Source of the DNA: a virus
Length of the DNA stretch: 64,000 bases
Direction: 5' to 3' (one strand)
IMG/VR virus record: IMGVR_UViG_3300025812_000003
Shown one piece after another: positions 13,757 through 45,465 of this stretch. The notes under the pieces were generated by a model. It was not told the DNA's origin and did not search any database. It saw only the letters and a list, made by a program, of their open reading frames with translations. Each line of letters opens with the position of its first letter. Positions within the stretch are counted from its first letter, which is position 1. The position numbers were made by a program, and so were the translations under genes.

Positions 13757-14465
13757 CTTCGAGACGTCGGGCCGGGATCCCAAGGTGCACTCCGTCGTCG
13801 AGGCGGGGCTGGTGCTGTGGGACACCGAGCTGCGCCGACCCGTCAGGTCGGAGGGATTCCTCGTATACGACCCCGAGGCGGTATGGGAAGAAGGCGCTGC
13901 GGCGGTCAACGGCATCACGCAGGAGCGATGCAACCTGTACGGGCTTCCCGCCAAGGATGCCCTCGGGCGGGTCGTCGGGTTCTACCAGCAGGCCGACGTG
14001 CTCTGCGCCCACAACGGCACCGCCTTCGACAGGCCCTTCTACGAGAACTGGGGCGAGCGCATGGGCCGCGCCGAGCCCGGGGATCAGGGCAAGGTGTGGA
14101 TCGACACCATGGTCGACATACCCTACCCCAAGGAATGGTCGGTCAAGCTAAAGTACCTGGCCGCCGAGCACGGCATCCTCCACTACCGGGCCCATGGGGC
14201 TCTGTCCGACGCGATGGTAATGCTGGAGATACTGGATCGCTGGCTGCTGGAGCAGGTCCTGGAGTCCGCCAGGTCCCCCACCATCACGGTCAGGGCGCTC
14301 GTCTCCTACGACGACAGGGACAAGGCCAAGGCGCTGGGCTACCATTGGCGTCCCATCGAAAGGTGGTGGGTGAAGCCCGTCAAGGCCTTCCGCCTGGAGG
14401 ACGAGGAGGCCGAGGCGGTCAAGGCCGGGTTCGCCATCAGGCAGGTCAACATAGAAGGCGGATAG
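13737..14465 (+). CDS. DEDDh 3'-5' exonuclease (DnaQ-like)
   Basis: LDFETSG, AHNGTAFD, HGALSDA. Confidence 0.9.
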   Translation: MVVGGLDFETSGRDPKVHSVVEAGLVLWDTELRRPVRSEGFLVYDPEAVWEEGAAAVNGITQERCNLYGLPAKDALGRVVGFYQQADVLCAHNGTAFDRPFYENWGERMGRAEPGDQGKVWIDTMVDIPYPKEWSVKLKYLAAEHGILHYRAHGALSDAMVMLEILDRWLLEQVLESARSPTITVRALVSYDDRDKAKALGYHWRPIERWWVKPVKAFRLEDEEAEAVKAGFAIRQVNIEGG

Positions 14466-16908: not shown

Positions 16909-17103
16909 ATGAGGAACCCATCGGTGTACACGGCGTCGGAACTGGCCGCCTGGCGGACAGCCAAGCAGTGCGCGCCCGGAAGGTGGCAGCCGTCGAGGCC
17001 GCTGCCGTTCTACGGCCTGAGGCTGATCCGCAGCTTCCGGCTCGCCTGGCGGGTCTTGGTCGGGCGCTATGACGCCCTGGACTGGGAAGACGGGGCGGCC
17101 TGA
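16909..17103 (+). CDS. small hypothetical protein
   Basis: GGAGG SD. Confidence 0.55.
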   Translation: MRNPSVYTASELAAWRTAKQCAPGRWQPSRPLPFYGLRLIRSFRLAWRVLVGRYDALDWEDGAA

Positions 17104-17147
17104 AAAGATTTCCTTGAAATTTTTGACTACGGAAGGTATTATATGGA
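17103..17147 (+). promoter_or_regulatory. sigma70-type promoter of tRNA array 1
   Basis: TTGAAA(17114)-17nt-TATTAT(17137); 41/45 identical to 39722-39766. Confidence 0.85.
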
Positions 17148-17293
17148 CGAACGAAGTTTGGCATTCGAAGCAGTTTGGCGTAGGGGCTGGTCAGCAGCCC
17201 CTACGCCTTAGGAAAGCGTCCCGTGCGGGCAGTTGGCTCTAGGCACCATTGAATTCCGGACGACGTTCCGGCCACGGGGCATGAGGTTTGGAA

Positions 17294-17386
17294 ATGAAGA
17301 ACCTGTCGAGCAACCCGTCATCGTCGCTAAGCTATCCGTCCTTGCTTAGTAGCGTGCCTGTGTCGCTCGAAGAAGGCGACTCCTAG
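17294..17386 (+). CDS. putative attenuator leader peptide (Ser/Leu/Tyr-rich)
   Basis: MKNLSSNPSSSLSYPSLLSSVPVSLEEGDS*; GAGG SD; 11 Ser, 5 Leu, 1 Tyr; precedes terminator and Tyr/Leu/Ser tRNAs. Confidence 0.75.
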   Translation: MKNLSSNPSSSLSYPSLLSSVPVSLEEGDS

Positions 17387-17413
17387 AGGGAGCGCAATTC
17401 GAGTTTAAGACCC

Positions 17414-17447
17414 AGGCCGCCAGAGAGTTTGGCGGCCTTTTTGTTTT
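17414..17447 (+). terminator. intrinsic terminator (attenuator) before tRNA array 1
   Basis: AGGCCGCCA-7nt-TGGCGGCCT then TTTTGTTTT. Confidence 0.85.
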
Positions 17448-17449
17448 GT

Positions 17450-19850: not shown

Positions 19851-20402
19851 ATGCTGAAGCTCGCGGCGGAGTTCCTCGTCAGGGCGAGGCTCCCCAGGCG
19901 TCCGGGGATGGTCGGGCCGGTCTACCACGGCACCTCGCAGGAATTCGAGGACTTCAGCCTGCCCGAGGACGTCGCCGATGAGGACTTCGAGGGGATCGGC
20001 GTCCACTTCGGCACCGTGGGGCAGGCGGAGACCGCCGCCAGGCGGTCCCCGGGCATCATCCGCGACGAGGGTTCGCCGGGGGAGGGGGCCAACATACGCC
20101 CGGCATACCTGAAGATTGGGAAGCCCCTGCGCATGCCGGACATGAACGAATGGGACCCCGAGGAGGTCGCCTACTGGCTCCTGGGGCACGGGGTCGTCGA
20201 CCGGGGGCAGCTCTCCCGCATGCTGGCCATAAGCCGGGCCCCGGGGGGCATCGACTACACGGCGGGATACAGGCTCATCCGGGAATGGCTGGACGCCAAG
20301 GGATACGATGCCATCGTGTACAGGAACAAGAAGGAGGGCAAGGGCGACAGCTACGTCGTGTGGCACCTGGGGCAGATAGTGCCCGCCCTGAGGGAGGAAT
20401 AG
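19851..20402 (+). CDS. ART-PolyVal-like ADP-ribosyltransferase
   Basis: VYHGT..FEDF..GVHFGT..AYLKI.KPL..GYDAIVY.N..EG..SYVVW..GQI. Confidence 0.7.
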   Translation: MLKLAAEFLVRARLPRRPGMVGPVYHGTSQEFEDFSLPEDVADEDFEGIGVHFGTVGQAETAARRSPGIIRDEGSPGEGANIRPAYLKIGKPLRMPDMNEWDPEEVAYWLLGHGVVDRGQLSRMLAISRAPGGIDYTAGYRLIREWLDAKGYDAIVYRNKKEGKGDSYVVWHLGQIVPALREE

Positions 20403-24400: not shown

Positions 24401-24807
24401 ACGAGACAATCATCGGCTGGAAGGCCTTCCGGGGCCCGGACGAGGAAGGCCGATGGGACTGTAGGAACTTGGGCTTTCTTTACCACGGGCTCGGCGGGAG
24501 CAGGCATGTGCCCGTGGGTACGTGGATGGTCGCCAAGGCCGGGATTGTGAGGGACGGCGTGGGGCAGCGATACAGGTCGGGCTTCCACTTCGTTAGGAGC
24601 CTCGACGACGCCAGGGCCTTCGACCGACTGACGAAGGGAAAGTACGTTTTCTTCCGAGTGCAAGCCTACGGGATCAGGCCCAAGCCGGGCAGCCGTACCG
24701 GCATATGGCTGGCCAAGAAGATGCGGGTAATCCCGCATTCCTGGACGGACCTGAGAACGGGCGAAACAATGGCAGTAGTGGCCAATCTGAGCAGGAGCAG
24801 CCTATGA
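24397..24807 (+). CDS. hypothetical protein
   Basis: ATGA overlaps; GWKAF...SGFH motif. Confidence 0.6.
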   Translation: MNETIIGWKAFRGPDEEGRWDCRNLGFLYHGLGGSRHVPVGTWMVAKAGIVRDGVGQRYRSGFHFVRSLDDARAFDRLTKGKYVFFRVQAYGIRPKPGSRTGIWLAKKMRVIPHSWTDLRTGETMAVVANLSRSSL

Positions 24808-25514
24808 TTGATCTAAAATGGGATTTGCATTTTCTGGACATGGCGAAGCTCGTGTCCTCGTGGTCCAAGGACCCCTCCACCCGGACCGGGGCCGTCATAA
24901 CGAGGCCCGACAGGACGGTGGTGTCGGTGGGGTTCAACGGCTTTCCCATGTCCATGCCCGACGATCCCGCCTTCCTCGGGGACAGGGAGGAGAAATACAG
25001 CAGGGTCATCCATTGCGAAATCAACGCCCTGCTCTTCAGCCGGGAGCCGCTGAGCGGATACAGCCTCTACACCTACCCCTTCCTGTCGTGCGAGAGGTGC
25101 GCCGTGACGATGATACAGGCGGGCATAAAGCGCCTCGTCGCCCCCGTGGCGGCACCCGACAAGCTGGAACGGTGGGGGAAGTCGTTCGAGAAGACGAGGC
25201 ATTACTGCGGGGAATGCCACGTAGAAGTGGTGGAGATAGAGTACGAAACGAAGCCGAACGACGCCCCAAAGCCGGGGGACGAGAAGGCCACGAAGGCGAC
25301 GATCATAGAGATAGACGACAAGCTCATGGAAAGGCTGGCCTCCGGCAAGAAGGCCGAATTCAAGACGTCTGAGCCCGTCACCAGGGTCATCGTCTCCCTG
25401 AAGGAAGGGACGGACCTTCCTGCCACGGCAAGGACGAAGAGCCTGTTCTTCAACACCTTCGGCCCAGGGGGCTTGTTCGACCAGGTGTTCGGTCGGCGCG
25501 GGCGCTACCTGTAA
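24804..25514 (+). CDS. dCMP deaminase
   Basis: SKDPSTRTGAVI, GFNGFP, HCEINAL, SCERC. Confidence 0.9.
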   Translation: MIDLKWDLHFLDMAKLVSSWSKDPSTRTGAVITRPDRTVVSVGFNGFPMSMPDDPAFLGDREEKYSRVIHCEINALLFSREPLSGYSLYTYPFLSCERCAVTMIQAGIKRLVAPVAAPDKLERWGKSFEKTRHYCGECHVEVVEIEYETKPNDAPKPGDEKATKATIIEIDDKLMERLASGKKAEFKTSEPVTRVIVSLKEGTDLPATARTKSLFFNTFGPGGLFDQVFGRRGRYL

Positions 25515-26904: not shown

Positions 26905-27369
26905 ATGGACTTCACGCTGGAATTCGCCGACGACGGCAGCCCGAAATGCCTGTCGGAAATCGAGTGCTCCTATCCCTCCACTCCCATGCACCACACATGC
27001 CTGCGAAAGGCCGGGCACGCAGGGCCGCATGCCACGCACGTCTTCTGGCAGCAGGAAGCAACCTTCAAAGGCACGACATTCAACGTCCAGTCGGGCGGGA
27101 TCGTGACGTGGGAGCCCAAGGGAAGGAAGCCAAGGTGCGAATGGAACCCCGCGAAGAAAAGGGCCGCATACCCGACGGACCGGGGCGGGCACGAGGCCAA
27201 CGGAATCGCATACAGCCCCGTAAGCATCTGGGGGCCCTACCAGAATGACATCTTTATATGCAGGGAATGCTGGAGCACCCCGGTGGCACGGGCAAAGTTT
27301 GCCGGGTGGAGGTGGGTGGAGACAAAGCCGGACGATCACGGCTGCATGCACGTTTCGCTCGGAGGGTAA
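26905..27369 (+). CDS. hypothetical protein
   Basis: GGAGG SD; Cys/His motifs. Confidence 0.55.
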   Translation: MDFTLEFADDGSPKCLSEIECSYPSTPMHHTCLRKAGHAGPHATHVFWQQEATFKGTTFNVQSGGIVTWEPKGRKPRCEWNPAKKRAAYPTDRGGHEANGIAYSPVSIWGPYQNDIFICRECWSTPVARAKFAGWRWVETKPDDHGCMHVSLGG

Positions 27370-27376
27370 GGCAGGC

Positions 27377-28165
27377 ATGAAAAGGGAAAAGAACGCCCTG
27401 ACGGCCAGGATGAAGGACAGCTACGAGCTGCGGTGCAGGCGCTACTTCCCGCGGCGGACGCACGTCATCGTCCGCGTGGACGGAAGGGCGTTCCACACCT
27501 GGACCAGGGGCCTCCGGAAGCCCTACGACCCGGACTTCATGGCATGCATGGACGCCGCCGCCCTGGCGCTATGCAAGGAGGTCTCGGGATGCAAGCTCGG
27601 GTACGTCCAGTCGGACGAGGTGAGCCTGCTCCTGACGGACTTCGACTCCGTGGAGACCCAGGCGTGGTTCGACAACTGCCAGGACAAGATCGAGAGCATC
27701 ACGGCCAGCATCGCCACCATGGCGTTCAACCGGCACGTGGGGTGGTTCCGCCAGGACTTCGTCCTCGGCATCAACCCCGAGGGCGTCAAGGCCCACCCCA
27801 TGGCGGGCAAAAAGCCCGACGCCACGTTCGACTCCCGGGCCTTCGTCATCCCGGACTACGTCGAAGTGGAGAACTACTTCATCGACCGGCAGAAGGACGC
27901 CATCAGGAACTCCATAACGATGCTGGCCAGCGCCCATGCCAGCCCCAAGCAGCTTTTCGGGAAAAAATCCGCAGACAGGCTCGCGCTCGTAGGCGAGGCG
28001 GGCCTCGAATGGAAGGCGCAGCCGGTGCGGTTCAGGCGGGGGGCGGCGGTATGGAAGGCCGAGGACGGATGGGTGGCGGACCCCTGCACGCCCGAGTTCA
28101 CGAAGCACAGGGATTTCCTGAGGAACTCCATTCCGCGCCATTGGCAGGAGGACGAAAATGTCTGA
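27377..28165 (+). CDS. Thg1-like tRNA(His) guanylyltransferase / 3'-5' polymerase
   Basis: RVDGRAFHTWT, YVQSDEVSL, FDSRAF, YFIDRQKDAIRNSI. Confidence 0.92.
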   Translation: MKREKNALTARMKDSYELRCRRYFPRRTHVIVRVDGRAFHTWTRGLRKPYDPDFMACMDAAALALCKEVSGCKLGYVQSDEVSLLLTDFDSVETQAWFDNCQDKIESITASIATMAFNRHVGWFRQDFVLGINPEGVKAHPMAGKKPDATFDSRAFVIPDYVEVENYFIDRQKDAIRNSITMLASAHASPKQLFGKKSADRLALVGEAGLEWKAQPVRFRRGAAVWKAEDGWVADPCTPEFTKHRDFLRNSIPRHWQEDENV

Positions 28166-34665: not shown

Positions 34666-35768
34666 GGGAGATTCTCGTCCTGGTCGGTCTGGCAGCGGGA
34701 TTCGTTTTGGCATTCGGGATATCATGGTCGCTCCATTGGACCCGCAGGGCATGGAAGGCCGACTGCGAGTATGCCGCCATCCGGGCCAAGGAGAGGCGGA
34801 ACCTTGAGCTCGATGCCATAGGGGCGGCAAGGAATGCCCTCAGGGCATGGGGGCTCTGCCCCAGGTGCGGGACGGCCGATGGGCTGCTAGGAATCGACGG
34901 CACCCCAGAGAGCTCGGCGGATTATCGCTGGTGCGACGATGCGTTTCATGCCGTAGGGGAGTTCGATAGGTGGCCAGTCGGGGAGGCGCATGCCAGGGCG
35001 GAACGGAAGCTCATAAAGTACGGCATGAGAATCCTAAGGGGGGTCAAGGAGGCATGCTGACATGGGCATGATACTCGACACCAGGGACGACGTCCTTGGG
35101 CTGGAGGAACGGCGGGAGTCGTTCGTAGTGGTGGACAAGAAAAGGCTCTACCCCTGCGAGCAGGACCCGAGGCCGAAGGACCGGACCGTCCTTGCGGTCA
35201 AGTCGGAGTACATCTTCGCCAATGCGGACGGGGAGATAGAGGTTTCCAAGGAATTCTTGATCAAGCTGGTGGAGTTCTTCGGCCTGCCGGAGAACCGCGA
35301 CATGCTCAGGAGAAAATAACATGGGCCGGGGAATGTTGACCTTCAAGGAAACTATGAGGTTGACGGCAAGCGACGGGTGCGCCGTAAGGCGGCCCTACCC
35401 GAGGACGGCCCCATGCGCCGTGCTTTGCGAGGCGGACGGGGACCAAATCGTGGCCATGATCGGCCCCAACCCCATGGAAGGCGTGTGCGGGTACGGCGAC
35501 ACGCTGCCGGAGGCGCTGCGAAACCTGGCCAATGAGCTGGAGCGGGAAGTGGGGGAGGACCCGAAGACGGGATGACCTTCGCCATGAAGAAAAACGGGCG
35601 ATACGAAGCGGGGCCAACGCCGCATGGGACGTGGGAAATCCGGGTGCTGGACGAGGACGGCACTTGGGTATTGGTTGTATGGGTGGACGAATCATCGGGG
35701 CTCGACGAGCACTGGGGGGCGTCGAACCCCGGTTTGTTTTACAAGGAAGGGTACGCCAAGGTATTTCC

Positions 35769-36716
35769 ATGAACGAACATCTCTACGGCAAGCTCAAGCA
35801 GGCAATGGTCCAGTTCGGGAAGGTCGACCCCGACAGCGTCATCCTGGCATTCGCCTCGGGCTCCCGCTTGCACGGGGCAAGGCACGAGGGGGAGGGGGAC
35901 CTCGATGTGGCGGGAGCGTTCATAGGACGCCCGCACGAGGAGCTGCGCCTGGACAGCGAGGACCCGAAGAAGGGGGGCCACGCCAGCGCCAGCACGTCCT
36001 CGGACAAGAGGAAGAACTCCAAGGACGACGTCGACGTGAAGGCCTACAGCCTCAGGCGGTGGGCGGGCCTGGCCCTGAAGGGGAACCCCGCCGCCCTGTC
36101 GTTTCTGTTCGTCCCGGACGAGGTCCGGGACATGTCCGTGGAGCCCAAGTGCATATGGTCCTGCCCAACCGACGAGCAGCAATGCGAGTACCCGAAATGC
36201 CTGACGGAATGCCCGGACTTCGTCGGGGACAACGAATGCAAGCGCAGGAACAGGGAGGCGCACAGCCTGACGGCATGGGACCTCTTCGTCCTCCCGAACA
36301 AGGGCGTGTTCCTGGCGTCGAAGCATGCCAAGGCATTCCTGGGGCTGGGGAACGACCAGTTTGATCGGATGACGGAAAAGAACTGGGTGCGGACCCACAT
36401 CTCCCCGGTCGTTCCCGCCACGCAAGGCTACAAGAGCAAGCCCGCCATGCACATGATAAGGGGGATGATGGAAGGCATCGAGCTCCTGGGCACGGGAACC
36501 GTGACGTTTCCGAGGCCCGAGAAGGAGCTCCTCCTGGACATCAAGGAGGGAAGGATGAGCCTCCGGGAAATCCTGGACCTGTACAAGAGCCTGAGGGACA
36601 AGCTGAAGGAGGCGGAAAAGCGCTCGCCCCTCCCTCCGGAATGCGACAGGGAGGCCGCAGGCAGGCTGGTAGCGGACGCCATGCTCTGGCATTGGAAACT
36701 GAGGGGGTGGACATGA
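35769..36716 (+). CDS. RlaP-like (Pol-beta superfamily) nucleotidyltransferase
   Basis: GSRLHG....GDLDV.G.F, YSLRRW..LALKGNP, K.AMH.IR. Confidence 0.8.
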   Translation: MNEHLYGKLKQAMVQFGKVDPDSVILAFASGSRLHGARHEGEGDLDVAGAFIGRPHEELRLDSEDPKKGGHASASTSSDKRKNSKDDVDVKAYSLRRWAGLALKGNPAALSFLFVPDEVRDMSVEPKCIWSCPTDEQQCEYPKCLTECPDFVGDNECKRRNREAHSLTAWDLFVLPNKGVFLASKHAKAFLGLGNDQFDRMTEKNWVRTHISPVVPATQGYKSKPAMHMIRGMMEGIELLGTGTVTFPRPEKELLLDIKEGRMSLREILDLYKSLRDKLKEAEKRSPLPPECDREAAGRLVADAMLWHWKLRGWT

Positions 36717-37053: not shown

Positions 37054-37503
37054 ATGAAAGCAGCAACGGCCAGGGCAGCGAGCGAACGGGCAGCGGAGGC
37101 CCCCCGCATCAAGAGGGAGAAGGAATCCGAGGAGCGCAGGTTCCGGGACAAGAAGGCGAAGTCCAAAAAACACAAGGATTTCTATGCAAGCCTTCTCAGG
37201 CACATTTACGCTTCCATCGACTATACAGTCAAGGATGGAAAGAAGTCCATCTCTCGGACCCTCGTATCTGAGCACTGGGTAAGCGACAAGTCCGTCTATG
37301 GGGACTTCTTCAAGAGGTTCGAGTTCGCCAAGGAAGTCAAGCTAGTGCTGAGGAAGCTCCACAAGGACGGCTACAAGGCAGTCATCGAGGGCAGGTGCGT
37401 GGAGCACGACACCAGCGCCGCCTACATGAATAGCGGCGGCGAGTGCGGCTCCGAGACGCCTTACCATACTTACGATAGCATCCTCGTAGTTTCCTGGGAG
37501 TGA
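37054..37503 (+). CDS. hypothetical protein
   Basis: GGAGG SD. Confidence 0.55.
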   Translation: MKAATARAASERAAEAPRIKREKESEERRFRDKKAKSKKHKDFYASLLRHIYASIDYTVKDGKKSISRTLVSEHWVSDKSVYGDFFKRFEFAKEVKLVLRKLHKDGYKAVIEGRCVEHDTSAAYMNSGGECGSETPYHTYDSILVVSWE

Positions 37504-37506
37504 CTT

Positions 37507-38499
37507 ATGCCCACAAAAATCCTGATAACGGGCGGTGCGGGGTTCATCGGCCACCATTTCGTGGAGCACGTCCTCAAGGCCACGGACTGGGACGTCGTCG
37601 TCCTGGACAAGCTCACCTACGCCTCCGAGGGGTTCGACCGGCTCAGGGACATCGAGGCGTTCGACAGCCGCAGGGTCAGGACATACCCGGTGGATTTGAG
37701 GTCCAGGGTGGGGGAGGGGCTGGAAAGGGAGCTACACGTCGACTATTTGGTCCACATGGCCGCGGAGACCCACGTGGACAACTCGATTGCGGCCCCCCGC
37801 ATATTCGTGGAGTCCAACGTCATGGGGACGTTCGAGATGCTGGAGCTGGCCCGACGCCTTCCCGGGCTCAGGCGGTTCCTCTACTTCTCGACCGACGAGG
37901 TCTTCGGCCCGGCCCCCAGGACCACGGCGTACAAGGAGTGGGACAGGTACAATTCCACCAATCCCTATGCCGCCACGAAGGCGGCTGGGGAGGAGCTCTG
38001 CCTGGCGTGGGCCAACACCTACAAGGTGCCGGTGATCGTGACCCATTGCATGAATGCGTTCGGGGAAAGGCAGCATCCGGAGAAGTTCATCCCCAAGGTC
38101 GTGAAGTCCCTGCTGAGGGGGACGACCATACCCATCCACGCGTCCCCGGACAGGAAAGTCTCGGGCAGCCGCTTCTGGATACACTGCCGCAACATCGCCT
38201 CGGCCGTCCTCTTCCTCCTGGCGAACGCGTCGTTCCGGCAGAAGTACAACATAGTGGGGGAGAAGGAAGTATCCAACCTCGAACTGGCGAAGAACATCGC
38301 CTCGGTGCTCGGGAGGGACCTGAGCTACGAGATGGTGGACTTCCATTCCTCCCGCCCGGGCCACGACCTGCGCTACGGGCTGTGCGGGGACGCCATGTGG
38401 AACATGGGCTGGGAAGTCCCGATGAGCTTCGAGGACAGCCTGGCCAAGACCATCGGGTGGATGACGAGCCCCGAACACATCCATTGGCTGGGGATGTAG
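37507..38499 (+). CDS. rfbB: dTDP-glucose 4,6-dehydratase
   Basis: ITGGAGFIG, LDKLTYA, AAETHVDNSI, STDEVFG, YAATK, QHPEKFIP, RPGHDLRY. Confidence 0.9.
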   Translation: MPTKILITGGAGFIGHHFVEHVLKATDWDVVVLDKLTYASEGFDRLRDIEAFDSRRVRTYPVDLRSRVGEGLERELHVDYLVHMAAETHVDNSIAAPRIFVESNVMGTFEMLELARRLPGLRRFLYFSTDEVFGPAPRTTAYKEWDRYNSTNPYAATKAAGEELCLAWANTYKVPVIVTHCMNAFGERQHPEKFIPKVVKSLLRGTTIPIHASPDRKVSGSRFWIHCRNIASAVLFLLANASFRQKYNIVGEKEVSNLELAKNIASVLGRDLSYEMVDFHSSRPGHDLRYGLCGDAMWNMGWEVPMSFEDSLAKTIGWMTSPEHIHWLGM

Positions 38500-38513
38500 C
38501 CGGGAGGCAAACG

Positions 38514-38825
38514 TTGGAACTATGGCTCGACGACATACGCAAGCCCCCGGATAGCTGGCAGAGCGACCACATCATCGTATGGGCTAAGACCGCCGCCGAG
38601 ACCATTGCCCTGCTCAGGACGGGAGAAGTCACGTATGCCTCCCTGGACCACGACCTCGGGCTCCAGGAGGGCAACTCAGGCTATGCCGTGGTGTGCTGGA
38701 TGGAGGAGAACGGCATCTGGCCGAAGGACGGCGTGGACGTCCATTCCATGAACGTGGTCGGCCGGAAAAGGATGGAGGCAGTCATCGAGAGGGCGTACGG
38801 AAGGATGGGGAGGGGACATGGATAG
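38514..38825 (+). CDS. cyclic-phosphate-processing receiver-like domain protein
   Basis: LWLDDIR.PP, SLDHDLG, GY.V..W, HSMN.VG. Confidence 0.75.
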   Translation: MELWLDDIRKPPDSWQSDHIIVWAKTAAETIALLRTGEVTYASLDHDLGLQEGNSGYAVVCWMEENGIWPKDGVDVHSMNVVGRKRMEAVIERAYGRMGRGHG

Positions 38826-39388
38826 GCGTGGGTTTTTGGGGATGTTCCTGGCAATTCCAGCCGCCGTGATGGCGGCGGGCACGCTGCCTTTCGACAATGG
38901 GCCCTGGCCCGCGCCGACCGTGCCGGTCCCCTACCTCCCGCTGTACAGTTGCCCGACGATAAGCCTCCAGAGGATGCGGGACATGAGGATTCTGCGGTAT
39001 TGCGTCAACGACGCCAAACTCGCAGTGCTGAGGGAACATTGGCCGATGAAGATGAGAACGGAGGGGGAGAATGCGATACCATGACCCGGAAAAGGACTCG
39101 CTGGAATACCGGCAAAGGCACCGCCTGAACAAGGAGACCGAAATCCGCAGGGCCAGGAACCGCTCCAAGAATAAAATGCAGAAGGCGTCGCGAAGGCACA
39201 ATCGGAGACGGTAGAGGAAGGCGGGAATGGGCGGCCATAGATTTCAAAGGAAGGCGCACGCCGACTATGCCATCGCGGCCTACGGGTCGGAGCTTGCCGG
39301 GGACATCCTGAACTGCGAAGTCTGCGGCAGGCCGTACGAGGAGCACGACCACGGAGACGTGGAAACCAAGGACAAGGGGGGAAAGGCA

Positions 39389-39667
39389 ATGAAAAGGGAA
39401 GAAGCATTGAAGCTGATCGACAGGGAGCGGGAGGCCCAGGATAGGGAATGGCCGAGGGACGCATACAGGAGGCAGCTCTACTCCACCATCCCCCCGCACA
39501 TCCTCCTGCTGGAGGAGCAGGTAGCGAAGCTCCGGTCCGACTGGTACAGGTCCGAGCGGGAGGACTGCCTGGACCGCATCGTCAAGACGGCGGCAATCGC
39601 CCTCCGGGCGCTGGAGGAGATAGTCCCGGAGGGGTGCCCCGTCCCGGACAGCGAGAAGGCGGCATGA
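39389..39667 (+). CDS. small helical (MazG-like?) protein
   Basis: IDREREAQD..W...LLEE...VKTAAIA. Confidence 0.5.
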   Translation: MKREEALKLIDREREAQDREWPRDAYRRQLYSTIPPHILLLEEQVAKLRSDWYRSEREDCLDRIVKTAAIALRALEEIVPEGCPVPDSEKAA

Positions 39668-39721
39668 CGACGCTTGCCAACGACGAGGACGTCCAGTTCA
39701 GCGACAAGCTGGTCTAGCCGA

Positions 39722-39766
39722 AAAAGATTTCCTTGAATTTTTCGCCTACGGGAGGTATTATATGGA
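39722..39766 (+). promoter_or_regulatory. sigma70-type promoter of tRNA array 2
   Basis: TTGAAT(39733)-17nt-TATTAT(39756); near copy of 17103-17147. Confidence 0.85.
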
Positions 39767-39974
39767 TGGCAGGAGGAATCCTGGCCAGTACCAGTCCATA
39801 CGGGTTCGCATCGGGCGATGGTTTCCCGCGAGTCGCCGGGGTCGAAGCTAGGAGTGGGCGGCCCGGTAGGGCCGTGAAAGCGGCCCGCATCAAAACTTCG
39901 ACTATGAGACTGGTATTTAGACGGTGGAGATGCCGGACGAAAGAGTTACCCGGTCGACCGTCGAAGAGAGCGAA

Positions 39975-40070
39975 ATGCGAAACAGGAAACCCAATCCGAT
40001 GCAGTGGCAGCCCAAGCGGAACCATTTCCGCCCGGGCTACGGTGGGCCTCCTTTCGCAGGCAGCGCGTAG
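39975..40070 (+). CDS. putative attenuator leader peptide (R/N/K/P/M/Q/W/H/F)
   Basis: MRNRKPNPMQWQPKRNHFRPGYGGPPFAGSA*; first 20 codons use only amino acids of the downstream tRNAs. Confidence 0.75.
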   Translation: MRNRKPNPMQWQPKRNHFRPGYGGPPFAGSA

Positions 40071-40095
40071 GAAGCGCAAAGCGAACAGAGATTTG

Positions 40096-40133
40096 AGGCC
40101 CGCCGGGAGGATTTCGGCGGGCCTTTTGCTTTT
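40096..40133 (+). terminator. intrinsic terminator (attenuator) before tRNA array 2
   Basis: AGGCCCGCCG-9nt-CGGCGGGCCT then TTTGCTTTT. Confidence 0.85.
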
Positions 40134-40260
40134 GGGCGGGATAGATGGGAGGCGGTGAGCAGGATAGGCTGGGGCGACCCAAGCACTGCGGGCCTCCCGA
40201 ACGGCGTGAAGTCCCCGCTCCAGGATTAAGACGCCCCGAAGGAAGGACGGGGCGCAGGAT

Positions 40261-40335
40261 GTGGCCGAACCCAAACGGCGCGGGGGCTGGCTGTGAACCA
40301 GCTTCTAGTCGGTTCGACTCCGACCGGTCACCCCA
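40261..40335 (+). tRNA. tRNA-His(GTG), G-1 not encoded
   Basis: GCTGG-CTGTGAA-CCAGC; C73; base -1 is T. Confidence 0.9.
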
Positions 40336-40340
40336 GTGGG

Positions 40341-40460
40341 GGGATCAACAGGGTCAGGGCGGTTAAAGTGAGCCGCGCTCCAGACGTGGGCCGGTGCCCA
40401 CGGGCAGCAGGAGCCGCCCATCCTTGCGGGACGCGGGTTAACCTGCACTCGGTTGATCCC
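40341..40460 (+). ncRNA. unassigned structured RNA
   Basis: 9-bp closing stem GGGATCAAC/GTTGATCCC with internal hairpins. Confidence 0.5.
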
Positions 40461-40594
40461 AGGAATTGCGGCGGAAAGTTGCTGGCAAGTCGATCCAGGC
40501 TGGGCGGGGACCTAAAAAGTACCCGGGAGTCATGACCCGGAGAAACCCAGGCCGCCCCGGATATCGTGACCAGTGGACGCCGCCCTTAGATTGA

Positions 40595-40670
40595 GGTCCC
40601 GTCGTCCAAATGGAGAGGGCATAGCCCTCCGAAGGCTAGAATCCCGGTCCGAGTCCGGGCGGGACCTCCA
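40595..40670 (+). tRNA. tRNA-Arg(CCG), C55
   Basis: TAGCC-CTCCGAA-GGCTA; T-loop TCCGAGT; CCA. Confidence 0.83.
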
Positions 40671-40690
40671 GGATTGAAGGAGGATGATTC

Positions 40691-40765
40691 GCTCCCATAG
40701 CTCAGCGAAAGAGCGCTCGCCTTCGAAGCGAGGGGACGCAGGTCAAAGTCCTGCTGGGAGCACCA
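40691..40765 (+). tRNA. tRNA-Arg(TCG)
   Basis: CTCGC-CTTCGAA-GCGAG; atypical T-loop TCAAAGT. Confidence 0.83.
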
Positions 40766-40781
40766 AAATTGAATGGGTTGT

Positions 40782-40860
40782 GCCCCCGTAGCTCAGCCCG
40801 GACCAGAGCGCTCCGCTACGAACGGAGAGGTCGTGGGTTCAAATCCGACCGGGGGTACCA
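40782..40860 (+). tRNA. tRNA-Arg(ACG)
   Basis: CTCCG-CTACGAA-CGGAG, CCA. Confidence 0.92.
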
Positions 40861-40943
40861 GTTCTTGGCGGATGGCCACGCCATCGATCCTGCCTGGGGG
40901 CAGGGGAGGCGACTGGCCGGTTGGTTCCGCCGGAACGCATTGC

Positions 40944-41017
40944 TGGCATGTCATCCAACGGTAGGATGCCCGGCCGTTACCCGGAGAATGGGGGTCCGAC
41001 TCCCTCCGTGCCAGCCA
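40944..41017 (+). tRNA. tRNA-Asn(GTT), C33/C55 variant
   Basis: Loop CCGTTAC; T-loop TCCGACT; G73. Confidence 0.8.
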
Positions 41018-41046
41018 AGGATTGGAAGAGGAGGAAGGCTCAGCGT

Positions 41047-41121
41047 TCCTGGGTAGCTCAACGGTAGAGCATACGGCTGTTAACCGTAGCGTTGGGGGTT
41101 CGATTCCCTCCCCAGGAGCCA
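41047..41121 (+). tRNA. tRNA-Asn(GTT)
   Basis: TACGG-CTGTTAA-CCGTA, canonical. Confidence 0.93.
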
Positions 41122-41229
41122 AAAATCGAAAGGCAATGTTGGCGCGAAAAGGGAGGCGAGCACGCCTCGCCCGGTCCTCGAAGCTCCGGGGCGAATGTCC
41201 GTGGAAGCCGGGCTGCGCCAGCTAGGTTC

Positions 41230-41308
41230 GGAGTCGTAACTCAAACGGGTCAAGAGTAGCCGCCTTTTAAGCGGAAGGCTGCGGGCCCCCAATCCGCCGA
41301 CTCCACCA
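41230..41308 (+). tRNA. tRNA-Lys(TTT), aberrant T-loop
   Basis: Loop CTTTTAA; T-loop CCCCCAA; CCA. Confidence 0.75.
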
Positions 41309-41319
41309 AGTTTCGACGT

Positions 41320-41395
41320 GCGCTCGTAGCTCAACTGGCAGAGCAGCGGCCTCTTAAGCCGAAGGTTGCAGGATCGTCCCCTGTCGGGCGCACCA
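41320..41395 (+). tRNA. tRNA-Lys(CTT)
   Basis: Loop CTCTTAA; T-loop ATCGTCC; CCA. Confidence 0.85.
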
Positions 41396-41401
41396 GGATT
41401 T

Positions 41402-41478
41402 GCCTCCTAAGCCGATGCGGTGCATGGCGTTCGCCTGAAGAGCGAGAGAACCCCGTTCGACTCGGGGAGGGGGCACCA
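41402..41478 (+). tRNA. tRNA-Phe(GAA)
   Basis: TTCGC-CTGAAGA-GCGAG, CCA. Confidence 0.88.
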
Positions 41479-41482
41479 GGAT

Positions 41483-41564
41483 TGCAGGGGAGTGGATCGG
41501 ATACGGAGACCACGCCAGCCCCATAAGCTGGAAATTGCGGGTTCGACTCCCGTCTCTGCTACCA
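41483..41564 (+). tRNA. tRNA-Met(CAT), 1:72 mismatch, C33
   Basis: CCAGC-CCCATAA-GCTGG, CCA. Confidence 0.78.
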
Positions 41565-41577
41565 ATTGAGGGATTGC

Positions 41578-41654
41578 AGCGGGGTGGAGCAGCCAGGTAG
41601 CTCGGAAGGCTCATAACCTTCAGGTCGGCGGTTCAAATCCGCCCCCCGCAACCA
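41578..41654 (+). tRNA. tRNA-Met(CAT), initiator-like
   Basis: A1:A72 mismatch, fMet-like D arm, loop CTCATAA. Confidence 0.88.
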
Positions 41655-41658
41655 TTTT

Positions 41659-41736
41659 GGCGGAGTAGACTGGAGACGGTCCCAGCACGGCCTCATAACC
41701 CGTTCTACGTGGGTTCGATTCCCACCTTCGCCACCA
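41659..41736 (+). tRNA. tRNA-Met(CAT) (elongator Met or Ile2 not distinguishable here)
   Basis: Loop CTCATAA, CCA. Confidence 0.8.
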
Positions 41737-41790
41737 GATATTTTGTGCGACGAAACCCCCCCGGGAAGGGGGTTTCGCTACAGGGAATGT

Positions 41791-41867
41791 CAGGGCGTAG
41801 CTTAGCTTGGTAAAGCGCTAGCTTGGGGTGCTAGAGATCGAAGGTTCAAATCCTTTCGCCCTGACCA
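41791..41867 (+). tRNA. tRNA-Pro(GGG)
   Basis: CTAGC-TTGGGGT-GCTAG; C1:G72, A73. Confidence 0.93.
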
Positions 41868-41928
41868 TAAATGCCCCGGACACGGGAAGTCCAGCGGAGG
41901 ACAACCGCTCCCGGCCGGGACCAGATTG

Positions 41929-42002
41929 CGGGGAGTAGCTGGAAGGTCGAGCTTACGCTTTGGGAGCGTATGACCCGGGTTCGATTCCCGGCTCCCCGAC
42001 CA
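41929..42002 (+). tRNA. tRNA-Pro(TGG)
   Basis: TACGC-TTTGGGA-GCGTA, CCA. Confidence 0.9.
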
Positions 42003-42009
42003 GATTTGT

Positions 42010-42088
42010 CAGGGTGTAGCTCAGCCTGGTCCAGAGCGCACGCCTCGGGCGCGTGAGGTCGGGGGTTCGAATCCCTCCATCCTGACCA
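42010..42088 (+). tRNA. tRNA-Pro(CGG)
   Basis: CACGC-CTCGGGC-GCGTG, CCA. Confidence 0.92.
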
Positions 42089-42093
42089 AGTTT

Positions 42094-42182
42094 GGATGTG
42101 CTAGAACGTAGGGTTCGACTCCCGGGGCCACCGGTCCCTTCGGGGAAAGGGTTCGACTCCCGAGGCCAATGGCGGCACATCC
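42094..42182 (+). ncRNA. structured RNA with two tandem T-arm+CCA motifs
   Basis: Closing stem GGATGTGCT/GGCACATCC; AGGGTTCGACTCCCG(G/A)GGCCA x2. Confidence 0.55.
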
Positions 42183-42221
42183 GTTTTGCGAGAGAAAAGG
42201 TAGCCACCTTTTCTCTCGTGT

Positions 42222-42296
42222 TCCGAGGTCGTCTAATTGGTAGGACGGGTGATTCTGAATCATCAAATCGGGGTTCGAGTCCCTGCTTCGGAACCA
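42222..42296 (+). tRNA. tRNA-Gln(CTG)
   Basis: GGTGA-TTCTGAA-TCATC, CCA. Confidence 0.9.
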
Positions 42297-42375
42297 AAGA
42301 TTGAATGGATGCCCCAGCCTCAAAACTCCGGGCATTGATGGCAGCGGCCACGGAGGGGCTGGCGGGGCATCCGCA

Positions 42376-42494
42376 AGGATAGGCCGGAGACGCGGGTCCG
42401 AATCCCGCCGGGCAGAACGCATGGAGCAGTCCTTCTCTTCAGGCAGAAAAACTCCCAGCGGCCTGTCGTCTAGTGGTTAGGACACCGGCATTCT
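42376..42494 (+). ncRNA. circularly permuted tRNA-like (YrlA/Y-RNA-like) unit A
   Basis: T-arm precedes closed acceptor-like stem and D-arm; ends pair GCCGG/CCGGC. Confidence 0.6.
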
Positions 42495-42637
42495 CAAACC
42501 TGGAGATGCGGGTTCGAGTCCCGTCGTCCTCCTTTGTCCCTGCCGAATCGGCCGATAAGACGGGGGCTGCCCGACATAGCCCTAATGGTAGCTGGGCAGG
42601 GGGGGCGTCGTCCAATGGTAGGACGCCAGAGCGTTTG
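42495..42637 (+). ncRNA. circularly permuted tRNA-like (YrlA/Y-RNA-like) unit B
   Basis: CAAAC-CTGG...T-arm...CGTCCTCC/GGGGGGCG...D-arm...CCAG-agc-GTTTG. Confidence 0.65.
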
Positions 42638-42638
42638 C

Positions 42639-42727
42639 AGGTGAGTGGCCCAGCGGCGACGGCACTGGTCTCCAAAACCAGCGGGCTTACATGCCCTTCG
42701 GGGGTTCGAGTCCCTCCTCACCTGCCA
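42639..42727 (+). tRNA. tRNA-Trp(CCA) with long variable arm
   Basis: CTGGT-CTCCAAA-ACCAG; V-arm GGGC-TTACAT-GCCC; A1:U72, G73. Confidence 0.85.
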
Positions 42728-42804
42728 GATTTCGCAGTATTATGCGTGCGAGGACTCGAACCCCCCGCCCGCCCAAGGCGCGGCGAATGGCCACGGAGGG
42801 AAAC

Positions 42805-43005
42805 ATGAAAGTCGGCGACTTGGTGACACTAAAGAGCGAGCACATAGGCATGACGGTAACAAAGGTGACCTCGAAGGACACGGGGACCCTGACACCGGAG
42901 AGCATCATCACGGTCGTATGGCTCAACCCCTGCACCGGGGCAATCGAGGAGGCGAGCCTTCCCGAACCCTGCTTCGACCTCCTGCCTGCCCAGGGCGATC
43001 ATTAG
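42805..43005 (+). CDS. YodC/DUF2158-like small protein
   Basis: MKVGDLVTLKS..GMTV...VVW. Confidence 0.55.
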   Translation: MKVGDLVTLKSEHIGMTVTKVTSKDTGTLTPESIITVVWLNPCTGAIEEASLPEPCFDLLPAQGDH

Positions 43006-43013
43006 GAGGTACA

Positions 43014-43214
43014 ATGTTGGACCTGAAAGACATGGCGGAGGCGTTTGACGAGGTCCAGCGGTTCCCCCTCGATCCGAAGGTCATGATAGTGGGCAGGGAG
43101 GTATGGGACAGCCTGCCCGAGGGCGAAGCCAAGGTCGTGGAATTCGACGGGTTCAGGCACCTAGCGGTCGAGCACGGCGGGACCCTGTACCTCCATCCCA
43201 TCTCGGAGATTTAG
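43014..43214 (+). CDS. small hypothetical protein
   Basis: AGGAGG SD. Confidence 0.55.
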   Translation: MLDLKDMAEAFDEVQRFPLDPKVMIVGREVWDSLPEGEAKVVEFDGFRHLAVEHGGTLYLHPISEI

Positions 43215-43425
43215 GATTGGCCTCCCCGCCCCCGGAAAGCCCCCGCCGAAACGGCGGCCTCCAACATTTTCTGGAAGTGCCGGGGCTCCCGAGGTATTAT
43301 GTAGGTGCCGCCCCCGCTCTGCCTAAGCCGCGGCAAGCTGGCAATTGGCGTGGCGATGTCTCAAGGGCGTGGCCAGCGGGGGCGGTCGATAAACGGCTTT
43401 TCGTCCCCTTAGAAGGGGGGATTCC

Positions 43426-43974
43426 ATGAGCGACGTTCTCGTTCTCGACATGAATTGGACGCCGGTCGGCTTCATGAGCTGGCAGAACGCCGTGAAGCTG
43501 TGGTACGAGGACCGCGCCAAGATCGTCAAGGAGGACGAGGGCGGCAGGGTCCTGCATTCCCAGTCCTTCGAGATGGGCATGCCCCGGGTCATCGTCGTCC
43601 GCAATGCCTGGACGCGGCGGAAGAGGCTGTCGGTGCCCTGCACGAGGCGGAACCTGCTGGTCAGGGACAACGCCGAGTGCCAGTACTGCGGCAGGGTCGT
43701 CAGGACGCACGAGTACACGAACGACCACGTGGTGCCCCTGTGCCAGGGGGGCAAGTCGGACTGGGAGAACCTCGTCACCGCCTGCATGCGCTGCAACAAG
43801 CAGAAGGGCGGCAGGACGCCCGCGCAGGCGGGCATGAGGCTGCTCTCCAGGCCGGTGGCCCCGAAGGCCACGGACCCCCGCTTCAACTTCAAGCTGCACA
43901 TACGCAGGATGCGGCCGGAATGGAAAGAGTGGGAGGGATGGCTATATTGGAACGCCGTCATCGACAAGGAATAG
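43426..43974 (+). CDS. HNH endonuclease (McrA-like)
   Basis: RDNAECQYCG...DHVVP..QGG..WENLVTACMRCN..KG. Confidence 0.9.
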   Translation: MSDVLVLDMNWTPVGFMSWQNAVKLWYEDRAKIVKEDEGGRVLHSQSFEMGMPRVIVVRNAWTRRKRLSVPCTRRNLLVRDNAECQYCGRVVRTHEYTNDHVVPLCQGGKSDWENLVTACMRCNKQKGGRTPAQAGMRLLSRPVAPKATDPRFNFKLHIRRMRPEWKEWEGWLYWNAVIDKE

Positions 43975-44165
43975 CGACATATGCTAAGATGGCTGCAACA
44001 TTTTCTTTTCGTGCTCCCCTATAGGCTGACTGGCAGCTACCCGACCTTGACGAGGCGGCAGAGGGTTGGGCTTGGAGAGCAACGATGGTGCTTGCGCGGG
44101 GACGCGTTCAATGATTATTCAAGGAGGGGTGAGCCATCCATCCTTCTCGTTTTTCAAAGGGTTAG

Positions 44166-44243
44166 GCCCCTGTAGCTCAGCGAAACCAGAGCGTCCGGCC
44201 TCTACCCGGAGGGTCGCGGGTTCGAATCCCGCCAGGGGTCCCA
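44166..44243 (+). tRNA. tRNA-Arg(TCT), C33, C73
   Basis: TCCGG-CCTCTAC-CCGGA, CCA. Confidence 0.82.
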
Positions 44244-44249
44244 GGTTGT

Positions 44250-44399
44250 ACCGGCGTAGCTCAGCCAGGTGGGGCAAAGCTCCGGGCGCTATATGCGACC
44301 CGCAAGGGCACGCAACGGCGGCGTCAGGGGCTCCCAGCACTCAGAGCGCTCGGTTTCTAACCGAGGGGCCGCGTGGTTCGAATCCCGCCGCCGGTGCCA
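44250..44399 (+). tRNA. tRNA-Arg(TCT) with ~75-nt hairpin insert in D-loop
   Basis: ACCGGCG/CGCCGGT acceptor, GCTC/GAGC D-stem around insert, CTCGG-TTTCTAA-CCGAG. Confidence 0.75.
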
Positions 44400-44405
44400 A
44401 GTTTC

Positions 44406-44482
44406 GGGCCTGTAGCTCAGATGGACGGAGCAGCGGTTTCCTAAACCGCAGGTCGGGAGTTCGAGCCTCCCCAGGCCTACCA
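44406..44482 (+). tRNA. tRNA-Arg(CCT)
   Basis: GCGGT-TTCCTAA-ACCGC, CCA. Confidence 0.9.
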
Positions 44483-44500
44483 TTTTTCCGAGGAGGATCC

Positions 44501-44818
44501 ATGCAGGTCGTCCCCATCCCGGAAGGCACGGTCGAGTACGACGGGAAGGTCTACCGGAGCCAGCCCTGGAGGGGCGGGTTCAACGCCCTGGTGCTCGTAG
44601 GGAACCTGGCTGCCGTAAAGGGCGAGGACGGGAAGCCCACGGGGGACAGGACCTTCGTGCCGCTGGCGAAGGCCGAGGAGGCCGCAGACCCCCGCAGGGC
44701 GGCGCAGAAGGCATTCCAGAGGGCGGCGCAGAAGGCGACCAAGGCCGCCGCAAGGCCCTCCGAAAAGAAGGCAGAAAAAAAGCCCGCCGACAAGCGGGCC
44801 CCGGAGAAAAAGAAGTAG
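44501..44818 (+). CDS. hypothetical protein with K/A-rich tail
   Basis: GAGGAGG SD. Confidence 0.6.
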   Translation: MQVVPIPEGTVEYDGKVYRSQPWRGGFNALVLVGNLAAVKGEDGKPTGDRTFVPLAKAEEAADPRRAAQKAFQRAAQKATKAAARPSEKKAEKKPADKRAPEKKK

Positions 44819-44937
44819 GAGGGAGCCGTGTGGGTCGATTCCGACGAGGACAATAACAGGAGAGGGCCTACCTGGTTCGAGGCCGCAATCATTTTGACGG
44901 CAACAGCCATCCTGCTTTTTCTTTGTTGGCAGGTTAC

Positions 44938-45012
44938 GCCCCCGTAGCTCAGTGACAGAGCGTCTCCCTCCTAAGGAGAAGGTCGTGGGTCAGATTCCCA
45001 CCGGGGGTTCCA
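44938..45012 (+). tRNA. tRNA-Arg(CCT), variant T-loop
   Basis: TCTCC-CTCCTAA-GGAGA; T-loop TCAGATT. Confidence 0.82.
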
Positions 45013-45090
45013 GGTTCGAGGAAAAGGAGGACGGCTTCATGGCAACCATGCCCCATGCCGGGTGAAGAGACCGGCGGAAGGAAGGTAGCC

Positions 45091-45465
45091 ATGAATCATC
45101 CCTCGTCCAGGGCGGAGCGCCGCGCCGTCCGCCTCGGATGGATCGCCCGCCGCCGCTTCGTCGCCGAACACATCTGGAGAAATTTCGACCCCCCGCCGTA
45201 CGAACACAACAGGCATTACTACGTCGGCAGGGTCCCCCCCGCTTGGTACCGTCCCTGGAGGCCGTTCCAGTGGGGACGGTGGTCCAAGTTCAACATGAAC
45301 TGCGGCTGCAGGCTCTGCCACCTCGGCAAGTATTTCAAGGAAAAAAGGAAGAGACGCCGGGCCCTGGCCGAGGAGGCCGCCCTGAACCTGGAATCGTGGG
45401 GAATCGACGTCGGGATCAGATTGGCCAGTCCACGCTCGGGACGGCGATCCTGGCCGGTGGCCTGA
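45091..45465 (+). CDS. basic hypothetical protein
   Basis: R-rich, CGCRLC. Confidence 0.5.
   Translation: MNHPSSRAERRAVRLGWIARRRFVAEHIWRNFDPPPYEHNRHYYVGRVPPAWYRPWRPFQWGRWSKFNMNCGCRLCHLGKYFKEKRKRRRALAEEAALNLESWGIDVGIRLASPRSGRRSWPVA

Follow-up and report, generated by a model that had tools for sequence, protein, structure and literature searches.

The 64,000-nucleotide (nt) stretch of IMG/VR virus record IMGVR_UViG_3300025812_000003 analysed here (hereafter the window) contains an array of 17 tRNA genes, array 2, which is headed by a promoter, a short open reading frame (ORF), and an intrinsic terminator (Table 1). We conclude that this ORF is probably the leader of a ribosome-mediated transcription attenuator that gates the tRNA genes downstream, and it is likely that the attenuator senses the supply of the array's own tRNAs. 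An initial annotation of the window had proposed the core of this reading, namely a codon-matched leader with terminator and antiterminator acting as a multi-amino-acid tRNA-pool sensor. The proposal gains support, at the level of sequence comparison, from codon enrichment, a conserved peptide, pairing of ORF and terminator in 13/13 leaders, and a composition that tracks the arrays in 19 leader-array pairs.

The leader mirrors the tRNA array

Re-translation of 39975-40070 returned exactly the peptide first reported for it. Codons 1-20 specify only Met, Arg, Asn, Lys, Pro, Gln, Trp, His, and Phe, and all nine amino acids are served by array 2, with none missing or extra, as had been claimed. 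The array content (His 1, Arg 3, Asn 2, Lys 2, Phe 1, Met(cat) 3, Pro 3, Gln(ctg) 1, and Trp 1) likewise came to the annotated 17 tRNAs for nine amino acids when ARAGORN, Rfam, and relaxed ARAGORN were combined. ARAGORN found 13 tRNAs in 40595-42727 (Arg ccg/tcg/acg, Asn gtt, Lys ctt, Phe gaa, Met cat twice, Pro ggg/tgg/cgg, Gln ctg, and Trp cca), and Rfam added three above its gathering score (40944-41014, 41230-41305, and 41659-41733), whose anticodons are, by coordinate, gtt, ttt, and cat. The tRNA-His(gtg) at 40261-40335 was recovered by relaxed-threshold ARAGORN only, together with a sub-threshold Rfam match of 22 bits; in relatives, a standard tRNA-His holds the first array position. A partial tRNA-like stretch at 42464-42526 (27.1 bits at a cut-off of 29, model positions 6-65) was excluded from the count. 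Each codon of the 20 is cognate to an array tRNA, with AGG read by Arg-cct at 44406/44938. An HNH endonuclease gene (43426-43974) stands between array 2 and the Arg tct/cct/cct tRNAs to which these two belong and which decode this AGG codon. The order is identical in relatives, and no leader of their own was seen before these Arg tRNAs.

In the predicted proteins of the phage, the nine amino acids together account for a fraction of 0.357, which puts the probability of 20 in succession, a calculation suggested in the initial annotation, at P = 1.2e-9. The run is the longest of its kind in the six-frame translation of the entire 95,171-base contig, followed by one of 13. Over the whole ORF, array tRNAs read 22/30 post-start codons at an expected proportion of 0.34 (P = 1.3e-5). 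All 16 distinct anticodons of array 2 and the Arg tct/cct tRNAs at 44166-45012 are sampled by at least one leader codon. This coverage follows from amino-acid composition, as all 16 were also covered 28% of the time when synonymous codons were redrawn by phage usage; the varied synonymous codons that had been put forward as evidence are thus no more varied than expected, and the argument from them adds nothing.

A common logic with the leader of array 1 had also been claimed, and promoter, matched ORF, and terminator do head this Tyr/Leu/Ser array as well. Its leader is rich in Leu, Ser, and Tyr, with 16/29 codons cognate to the array at 0.167 expected (P = 2.6e-6). Both promoters lie within a 44-nt motif common to these two sites only (39722-39765 and the array-1 promoter region 17103-17146), and a 17-mer of the motif has 2 matches in the window, at just these sites, with 0.16 expected. 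TATTAT promoters occupy the equivalent place before the leaders of relatives. Among viral contigs, the promoter 17-mer occurred at 118 loci and the remainder of the motif at none of them, and we dismissed these hits as chance matches. A purine-rich GAAGAGAG tract 8-15 nt upstream of the ATG at 39975 is weakly Shine-Dalgarno-like, and tracts of GAGA/GAGG type precede the leaders of relatives too.

Terminator and antiterminator are mutually exclusive in predicted folds

The terminator begins 24 nt past the stop codon and its hairpin has a predicted energy of -25.1 kcal/mol. Its 5' arm can instead pair with segment 2 inside the ORF in a duplex of -26.6 kcal/mol, a value equalled in 1.6% of 2000 shuffles (P = 0.016). 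These energies agree with the earlier assignment of 40040-40050 as a strand whose pairing with the terminator 5' arm is an alternative to the terminator. In the fold of naked RNA from 39975 to 40133 (z = -3.74), the terminator forms and ORF nt 2-24 are paired with nt 66-84, and the same pairing of segment 1 with segment 2 is present in the related contig G002 (see below) and is a feature of B-type leaders. The stop codon (40068-40070) was confirmed to lie, as first described, in the apical loop of a small hairpin, GCGC-GTAGGAA-GCGC, and G002 and a third variant, G003, have equivalent small hairpins of other sequence (TTTGCG/CGCAAA and TTCGC/GCGAA).

When a ribosome was placed at codons 6-17 of the array 2 leader, with the terminator 3' arm omitted from the fold, the antiterminator formed; a ribosome at codon 20 disrupted it. 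Among eight leaders treated in this way, seven were usable (G002_D was left out); the antiterminator was kept in 7/7 with the ribosome at codons 6-14, and placement at codon 20 removed it in most. In these fold models, the parts resemble the three-state layout of a classical attenuator.

Leader and architecture are conserved in relatives

Searching with Thg1, a gene of the window, led to a 237-kb contig (G001) and the 317-kb contig G002 (59% identity), and G003 was found with a degenerate leader pattern. G002, which shares synteny with the window, distributes all 20 amino acids over four arrays, and each array is preceded by a short ORF with a TATTAT promoter and a terminator. In its four leaders, codons for the own array number 18/29, 22/28, 17/32, and 10/23, as compared to 0-6 for other arrays. 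The leader before Gln(ttg) has CAA, and the leader before Gln(ctg) has CAG.

Three lineages share the first 15 residues of leader B without change; codons 1-15 have four variable columns, each of them a synonymous third position. Past the stop codon, the sequence of leader B is far more diverged, with few invariant columns, yet terminator and antiterminator still fold. In leader A, a Ser codon alternates between AGC and TCC. To judge from these substitutions, selection acts on leader translation. An identical peptide might also be expected if the short ORFs encoded functional micro-proteins and the composition match were a side effect. We consider this hardly credible, since across lineages the composition class is conserved and the sequence is not (MRNRKPNPMQWQ..., MTSMKHNTVARKQWRN..., ...NQQWQPQP...), the C-terminal halves are dictated by RNA pairing, with Gly-rich GGN codons complementary to terminator arms, and a homologue in cultured phages was not found.

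The leaders of the window, G002, G003, and the more distant phage G007 form a set of 14, in 13 of which a hairpin and T tract start 21-27 nt past the stop codon. The 3' part of the ORF pairs with the terminator 5' arm in all 13, at -13.7 to -26.6 kcal/mol as compared to -12.7 to -25.1 kcal/mol for the terminators, with a mean z of -2.8 relative to shuffled sequences and P < 0.05 in 11/13. Codon enrichment by binomial test ranged from P = 0.035 to 1.5e-7 in 14/14 pairs tested. The first tRNA begins 8-21 nt past the terminator stem in 8/13 leaders, a gap without room for a further promoter, so that in these eight the array would be transcribed by read-through only.

One or two small protein genes separate the terminator from the first tRNA in three units, those for Ile/Thr/Gln in G002 and G007 and that for Tyr/Leu in G007 (L154:1663-2015; L247rc:4136-4520; L249:1495-1720). 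Such genes would be co-regulated with the tRNAs.

Searches aimed at cultured phages gave tRNA matches only (blastn of 39000-43500) or matches only at E values of at least 2 (tblastn of the leader peptide). No close cultured relative was found; Thg1 matches stayed below 60% identity, and the 25 listed records out of 156 did not exceed 42%. No related loci emerged via the neighbouring upstream 146-aa protein and RIIA.

Leaders follow differently partitioned arrays in distant phages

Alignment of Thg1 reached 78 further loci. Among the distant phages, G007 (463 kb, Thg1 46% identical, 69 tRNA matches) partitions its tRNAs otherwise than the window, into Ser; Tyr/Leu; Trp/His/Arg/Asn/Gln/Lys/Cys; Pro/Met/Phe/Gln; Val/Gly/Ala/Asp/Cys/Glu; and Ile/Thr/Gln. 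Its six leaders follow this partition, and the true pairing of leaders with arrays is the best of 720 permutations. Pro, Met, and Phe form an array of their own, with the leader MNLMRPFTMFRPCMPTM..., and in the leader for His/Arg/Asn/Lys/Gln/Trp, Pro is absent and Phe appears once and late. As an observation apart, G007 has three tRNA genes with the amber-reading anticodon cta (L247, 234800-241400, minus strand, ~2336-2660), and all six leaders end in TAA; the three genes suggest that TAG is recoded in this phage.

In low-GC phages, three leaders in G012 and two in G013 are each followed by a hairpin and T tract. Those of G012 read NQQWQPQP before Gln/Pro/Trp, SSSRSSR before Arg and four Ser tRNAs, and ILNTTLLSISIILLL before Leu/Ile. 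In G013, HSIHTISISTSSS precedes Ser/His/Thr/Ile, with an ATA codon where an Ile(tat) tRNA exists, and KRRGNMDNFVNWFGFNRAADKDGG precedes a large mixed array. The same layout is thereby found in 19 leader-array pairs from six phage genomes, some of 28-35% GC. When the amino-acid sets of all 19 arrays were ranked against each leader, the own set came 1st for 13 leaders, 2nd for 4, 3rd for 1, and 6th for 1. Where it came second, the single set ahead of it was nearly equivalent.

The low-GC phages came to light in a blind scan that covered 16 array starts at other Thg1-phage loci and returned four rows at P < 0.002; the leader is identical in loci L178 and L180. The match in L202 (MIMIILFLMLII) was treated as spurious, being out of frame inside an apparent longer coding region. 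In the tRNA region of phage T5, 14 small ORFs were translated and none, by eye, mirrors the downstream tRNAs; the Cys-rich T5.070 before tRNA-Cys was rejected for its resemblance to a CxxC zinc ribbon.

A fixed leaky terminator that sets low constitutive tRNA transcription, with translation of the ORF irrelevant or absent, would sit well with the weak Shine-Dalgarno-like tracts and with A-type leaders that fold into the antiterminator already as naked RNA. We consider it improbable, as it leaves unexplained why composition mirrors the tRNAs in 19 differently partitioned pairs, why codons 1-15 show synonymous changes only, and why the 3' end of the ORF is complementary to the terminator arm in 13/13 leaders.

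Proposed mechanism and its weighing

By analogy with the trp, his, and ilv leaders, we infer how the attenuator would work. If any of the nine aminoacyl-tRNA kinds were scarce, the ribosome would stall in codons 1 to ~17 and leave segment 2 free to pair with the emerging segment 3 (the terminator 5' arm), so that no terminator would form and RNA polymerase would read into the tRNA genes. If all nine were plentiful, the ribosome would cross segment 2 to the stop codon, the terminator would form, and transcription would end. Termination in the unstalled state is proposed because the stop codon lies inside the loop that the antiterminator must close; on steric grounds the helix should not be able to close around a ribosome in the 44-nt enclosed loop, and timing is relied on as well. 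Untranslated RNA, with segment 1 on segment 2, would be terminated too. The result would be a negative-feedback supply loop in which a tRNA set is made when its decoding is slow and is stopped once its own tRNAs have restored it.

The direction of this switch could also be the reverse. Efficient leader translation might promote read-through by ribosome-polymerase coupling or terminator unwinding, such that tRNAs are expressed when decoding works; a ribosome at codons 18-20 masks segment 2, and the antiterminator persists in 6/7 folds when a ribosome at the stop codon is represented by its footprint. Such a logic seems to us very improbable. In 13/13 leaders, 21-27 nt separate the stop codon from the terminator stem, a distance over which a terminating ribosome could not melt that stem. 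The regulatory codons precede segment 2, an order known from classical designs where stalling gives read-through, and the positive feedback would make the arrays useless in tRNA shortage.

The identity of the signal is a separate matter. Classical attenuators respond to charging, a stalled ribosome cannot distinguish a missing from an uncharged tRNA, and the RNA structures would be identical if this were a true attenuator of amino-acid starvation (uncharged tRNA) or of general translation capacity, with the array as one output of a stress response. We regard this as unlikely, as more tRNA is no help when the amino acid is missing, and as blocks that each have a matched leader are predicted by a supply loop and are unneeded for a general stress signal.

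Several results weigh against an attenuator that senses the supply of its own tRNAs. Translation of the leaders is deduced solely from substitution patterns at few sites, and their Shine-Dalgarno-like tracts (GAGA/GAGG type) are weak. Segments 1 and 2 pair in B-type leaders and not in A-type leaders, whose naked fold is the antiterminator. With the ribosome footprint alone blocked at the stop codon, the antiterminator was still paired in 6/7 leaders, and termination in the unstalled state therefore rests on the steric and kinetic argument rather than on computation. Synonymous resampling across leaders gave no significant sign of codon-level design (P = 0.09-0.96). The pairs of the window, G002, and G003 are not independent, as these phages are related. 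In G007, the Pro/Met/Phe leader is the 1/14 without a recognisable terminator, and the Tyr/Leu leader carries five Ser codons with the Ser tRNAs elsewhere. No significantly matching ORF was found within 600 nt at 12/16 array starts of other Thg1-encoding phages. Finally, extra tRNA cannot relieve a stall caused by amino-acid starvation, so that the adaptive logic works for tRNA shortage only.

We nevertheless favour tRNA-supply sensing, and lean, with somewhat less assurance than for the array 2 leader itself, towards a broader proposal: large phages may run a demand-driven tRNA supply with few tRNA regulons, each gated by a multi-codon leader that tests its own codons on the ribosome and opens only if they are read slowly. 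Such leaders would form a class of product-sensing attenuators for RNA genes in unrelated large phages of 28% to 62% GC. As a weaker inference, the shortage sensed may stem from host tRNA-cleaving defences or from tRNA loss in infection. An anti-defence purpose is speculative; the idea fits with the neighbouring repair-type genes and with the published role of phage tRNAs.

Genome setting and other features

The window is part of the 95,171-base contig of an uncultured large phage. ARAGORN found 25 tRNAs in the whole contig, all inside the window and in three blocks, and the arrays sit among the tRNA/RNA-repair-type genes Thg1, RlaP, and cREC_REC. Other genes include RIIA/RIIB, a collagen-like tail fibre, an SNF2 helicase, and the HNH endonuclease. 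No RNA sequencing run was found to contain this DNA, a result that is neutral for the readings above.

Table 1 Features of the attenuator units, tRNA arrays, and repair-type genes (positions in the window; MFE, minimum free energy)
Feature	Position	Strand	Basis	Remark
Sister unit before array 1	17114-17449	+		array 1: Tyr, Leu x5, Ser x3
Array 1 promoter	17114-17142	+
Array 1 leader ORF	17294-17386	+		MKNLSSNPSSSLSYPSLLSSVPVSLEEGDS, then stop
Array 1 terminator and T tail	17414-17438	+		tRNA-Tyr starts 17450
Thg1	27245-28165			tRNA/RNA-repair-type gene
RlaP	35532-36716			tRNA/RNA-repair-type gene
cREC_REC	37500-38825			tRNA/RNA-repair-type gene
Array 2 promoter, sigma-70-like	39733-39761	+	consensus scan	TTGAAT-17 nt-TATTAT
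Long 5' untranslated region	39768-39974	+	sequence
Array 2 leader ORF	39975-40070	+	translation	31 codons + TAG; MRNRKPNPMQWQPKRNHFRPGYGGPPFAGSA, then stop
Regulatory stretch	39975-40034	+		codons 1-20
Segment 1	39976-39998	+	MFE + centroid fold	pairs with segment 2 (40040-40058) in untranslated full-length RNA
Segment 2, antiterminator strand in ORF	40039-40056	+		nt 65-82, codons 22-28; core CGGTGGGCCTC 40040-40050
Small hairpin	40063-40077	+	folds	enclosed by antiterminator
Intrinsic terminator	40095-40133	+	consensus scan + fold	stem 40095-40108/40112-40125, loop GGA, tail TTGCTTTT
tRNA array 2	40261-42727	+	ARAGORN, Rfam, relaxed ARAGORN	17 genes
Downstream Arg tRNAs (array 3)	44166-45012	+		tct/cct/cct

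The long 5' untranslated region (UTR) before the array 2 leader is partly conserved in G002 and G003 and absent in G007, where leaders begin 10-40 nt past the -10 box with almost no 5' UTR. A CCGGACGA...CCGG hairpin recurs in both 5' UTRs of the window (39930-39960 and 17255-17275), and the 5' UTR of G002 leader B (L152:1960-2050) contains three short GC hairpins, each ending in ACCA and resembling tRNA minihelices. G003 has an insert of ~1.4 kb between promoter and leader A (L165:300-1850), which indicates that the unit of leader, terminator, and array tolerates a long 5' insertion.

Some of the tRNA genes are unusual. The base before the first G of tRNA-His(gtg) (40260-40335) is T, so that G-1 is not templated, and the phage has a Thg1-type tRNA-His guanylyltransferase; the preceding base in the G002 tRNA-His is G. 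The tRNA-Trp(cca) at 42639-42727 is 89 nt long with a long, class II-like variable arm, a form also seen in G003 (90 nt, L166:4810-4899), and G002 has two ordinary 76-nt Trp tRNAs instead. An apparent second tRNA-Arg(tct) gene at 44243-44400 is split in its D-loop region by an insert of ~75-80 nt, and Rfam matches its 3' part only (44329-44388, 25 bits). Spacers of array 2 contain tRNA-like pieces (42090-42175, 42464-42526, and 42560-42640), comprising two T-arm-like GGGTTCGACTCCC hairpins, a partial tRNA without acceptor stem (27.1 bits), and a Glu/Asp-like D-arm fragment.

Further genes in the window encode a member of the cytidine/dCMP-deaminase family, with either tRNAs or nucleotides as possible substrates (24705-25514), an RNase T-like exonuclease (13737-14465), and a protein with a weak ART-PolyVal ADP-ribosyltransferase match below the Pfam cut-off (19851-20402).

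Comparison with known systems

Phage tRNA genes have been discussed as counter-measures to tRNA-targeting defences (PMC10264068, eLife 2023), and related papers deal with PARIS (PMC11464382, Nature 2024) and retron evasion (PMC11555353, Nat Commun 2024). The phage studied here resembles those described in the accessible parts of these papers in its large tRNA set, which in this case lies beside Thg1, RlaP, and cREC_REC. The same parts concern tRNA function and are without a word on transcription control, and the passages searched in PMC10264068 mention neither promoter nor terminator. A literature search that excluded subscription journals found no published leader-peptide attenuator before tRNA genes. 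If true, our reading would provide a first explanation for the control of tRNA expression in phages and would account for the sorting of large-phage tRNA genes into fixed blocks. A phage so equipped could ride out host tRNA loss from anticodon nucleases or host shut-off, and the leader would offer a compact natural sensor of specific tRNA supply that is usable as a reporter of anticodon-nuclease defence.

T-box elements bind uncharged tRNA directly and without a ribosome, by means of a specifier loop and the T-box motif. They share with the proposed attenuator that a specific tRNA state switches between terminator and antiterminator upstream of translation-related genes, but the codon series of the phage leader lies in an open reading frame. 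Neither the Rfam leader families nor the T-box matched anywhere in the window at the gathering score, and a search of 39600-45200 with E <= 1 gave no such match either. Closer in its target is the pheST (pheM) leader attenuator, which controls the phenylalanyl-tRNA synthetase of Escherichia coli. There, too, a leader peptide controls a decoding component for the matching amino acid; however, the target is a synthetase, a single amino acid is concerned, and the system belongs to a host rather than a phage.

The leaders trpL, hisL, leuL, and pheL are leader-peptide attenuators of enterobacterial amino-acid operons, and those of thr (Thr/Ile) and ilvGMEDA (Leu/Val/Ile) are multivalent. All attenuators of this class known to us regulate genes that make or handle amino acids. 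The phage leader has in common with them a promoter-proximal ORF with regulatory codons, a terminator, and an exclusive antiterminator that uses the 3' part of the ORF, and the B-type leader also has the 1:2 pairing for untranslated RNA. It differs in that its stop codon lies in the antiterminator loop and in that up to nine amino acids and 16 anticodons are represented, mostly 1-4 times each, with no run of a single codon. Moreover, it would regulate 17 tRNA genes instead of biosynthetic enzymes, so that the molecule sensed is the product. A textbook leader-peptide device appears here to govern tRNA genes whose products would act back on it by way of the ribosome, for up to nine amino acids at once.

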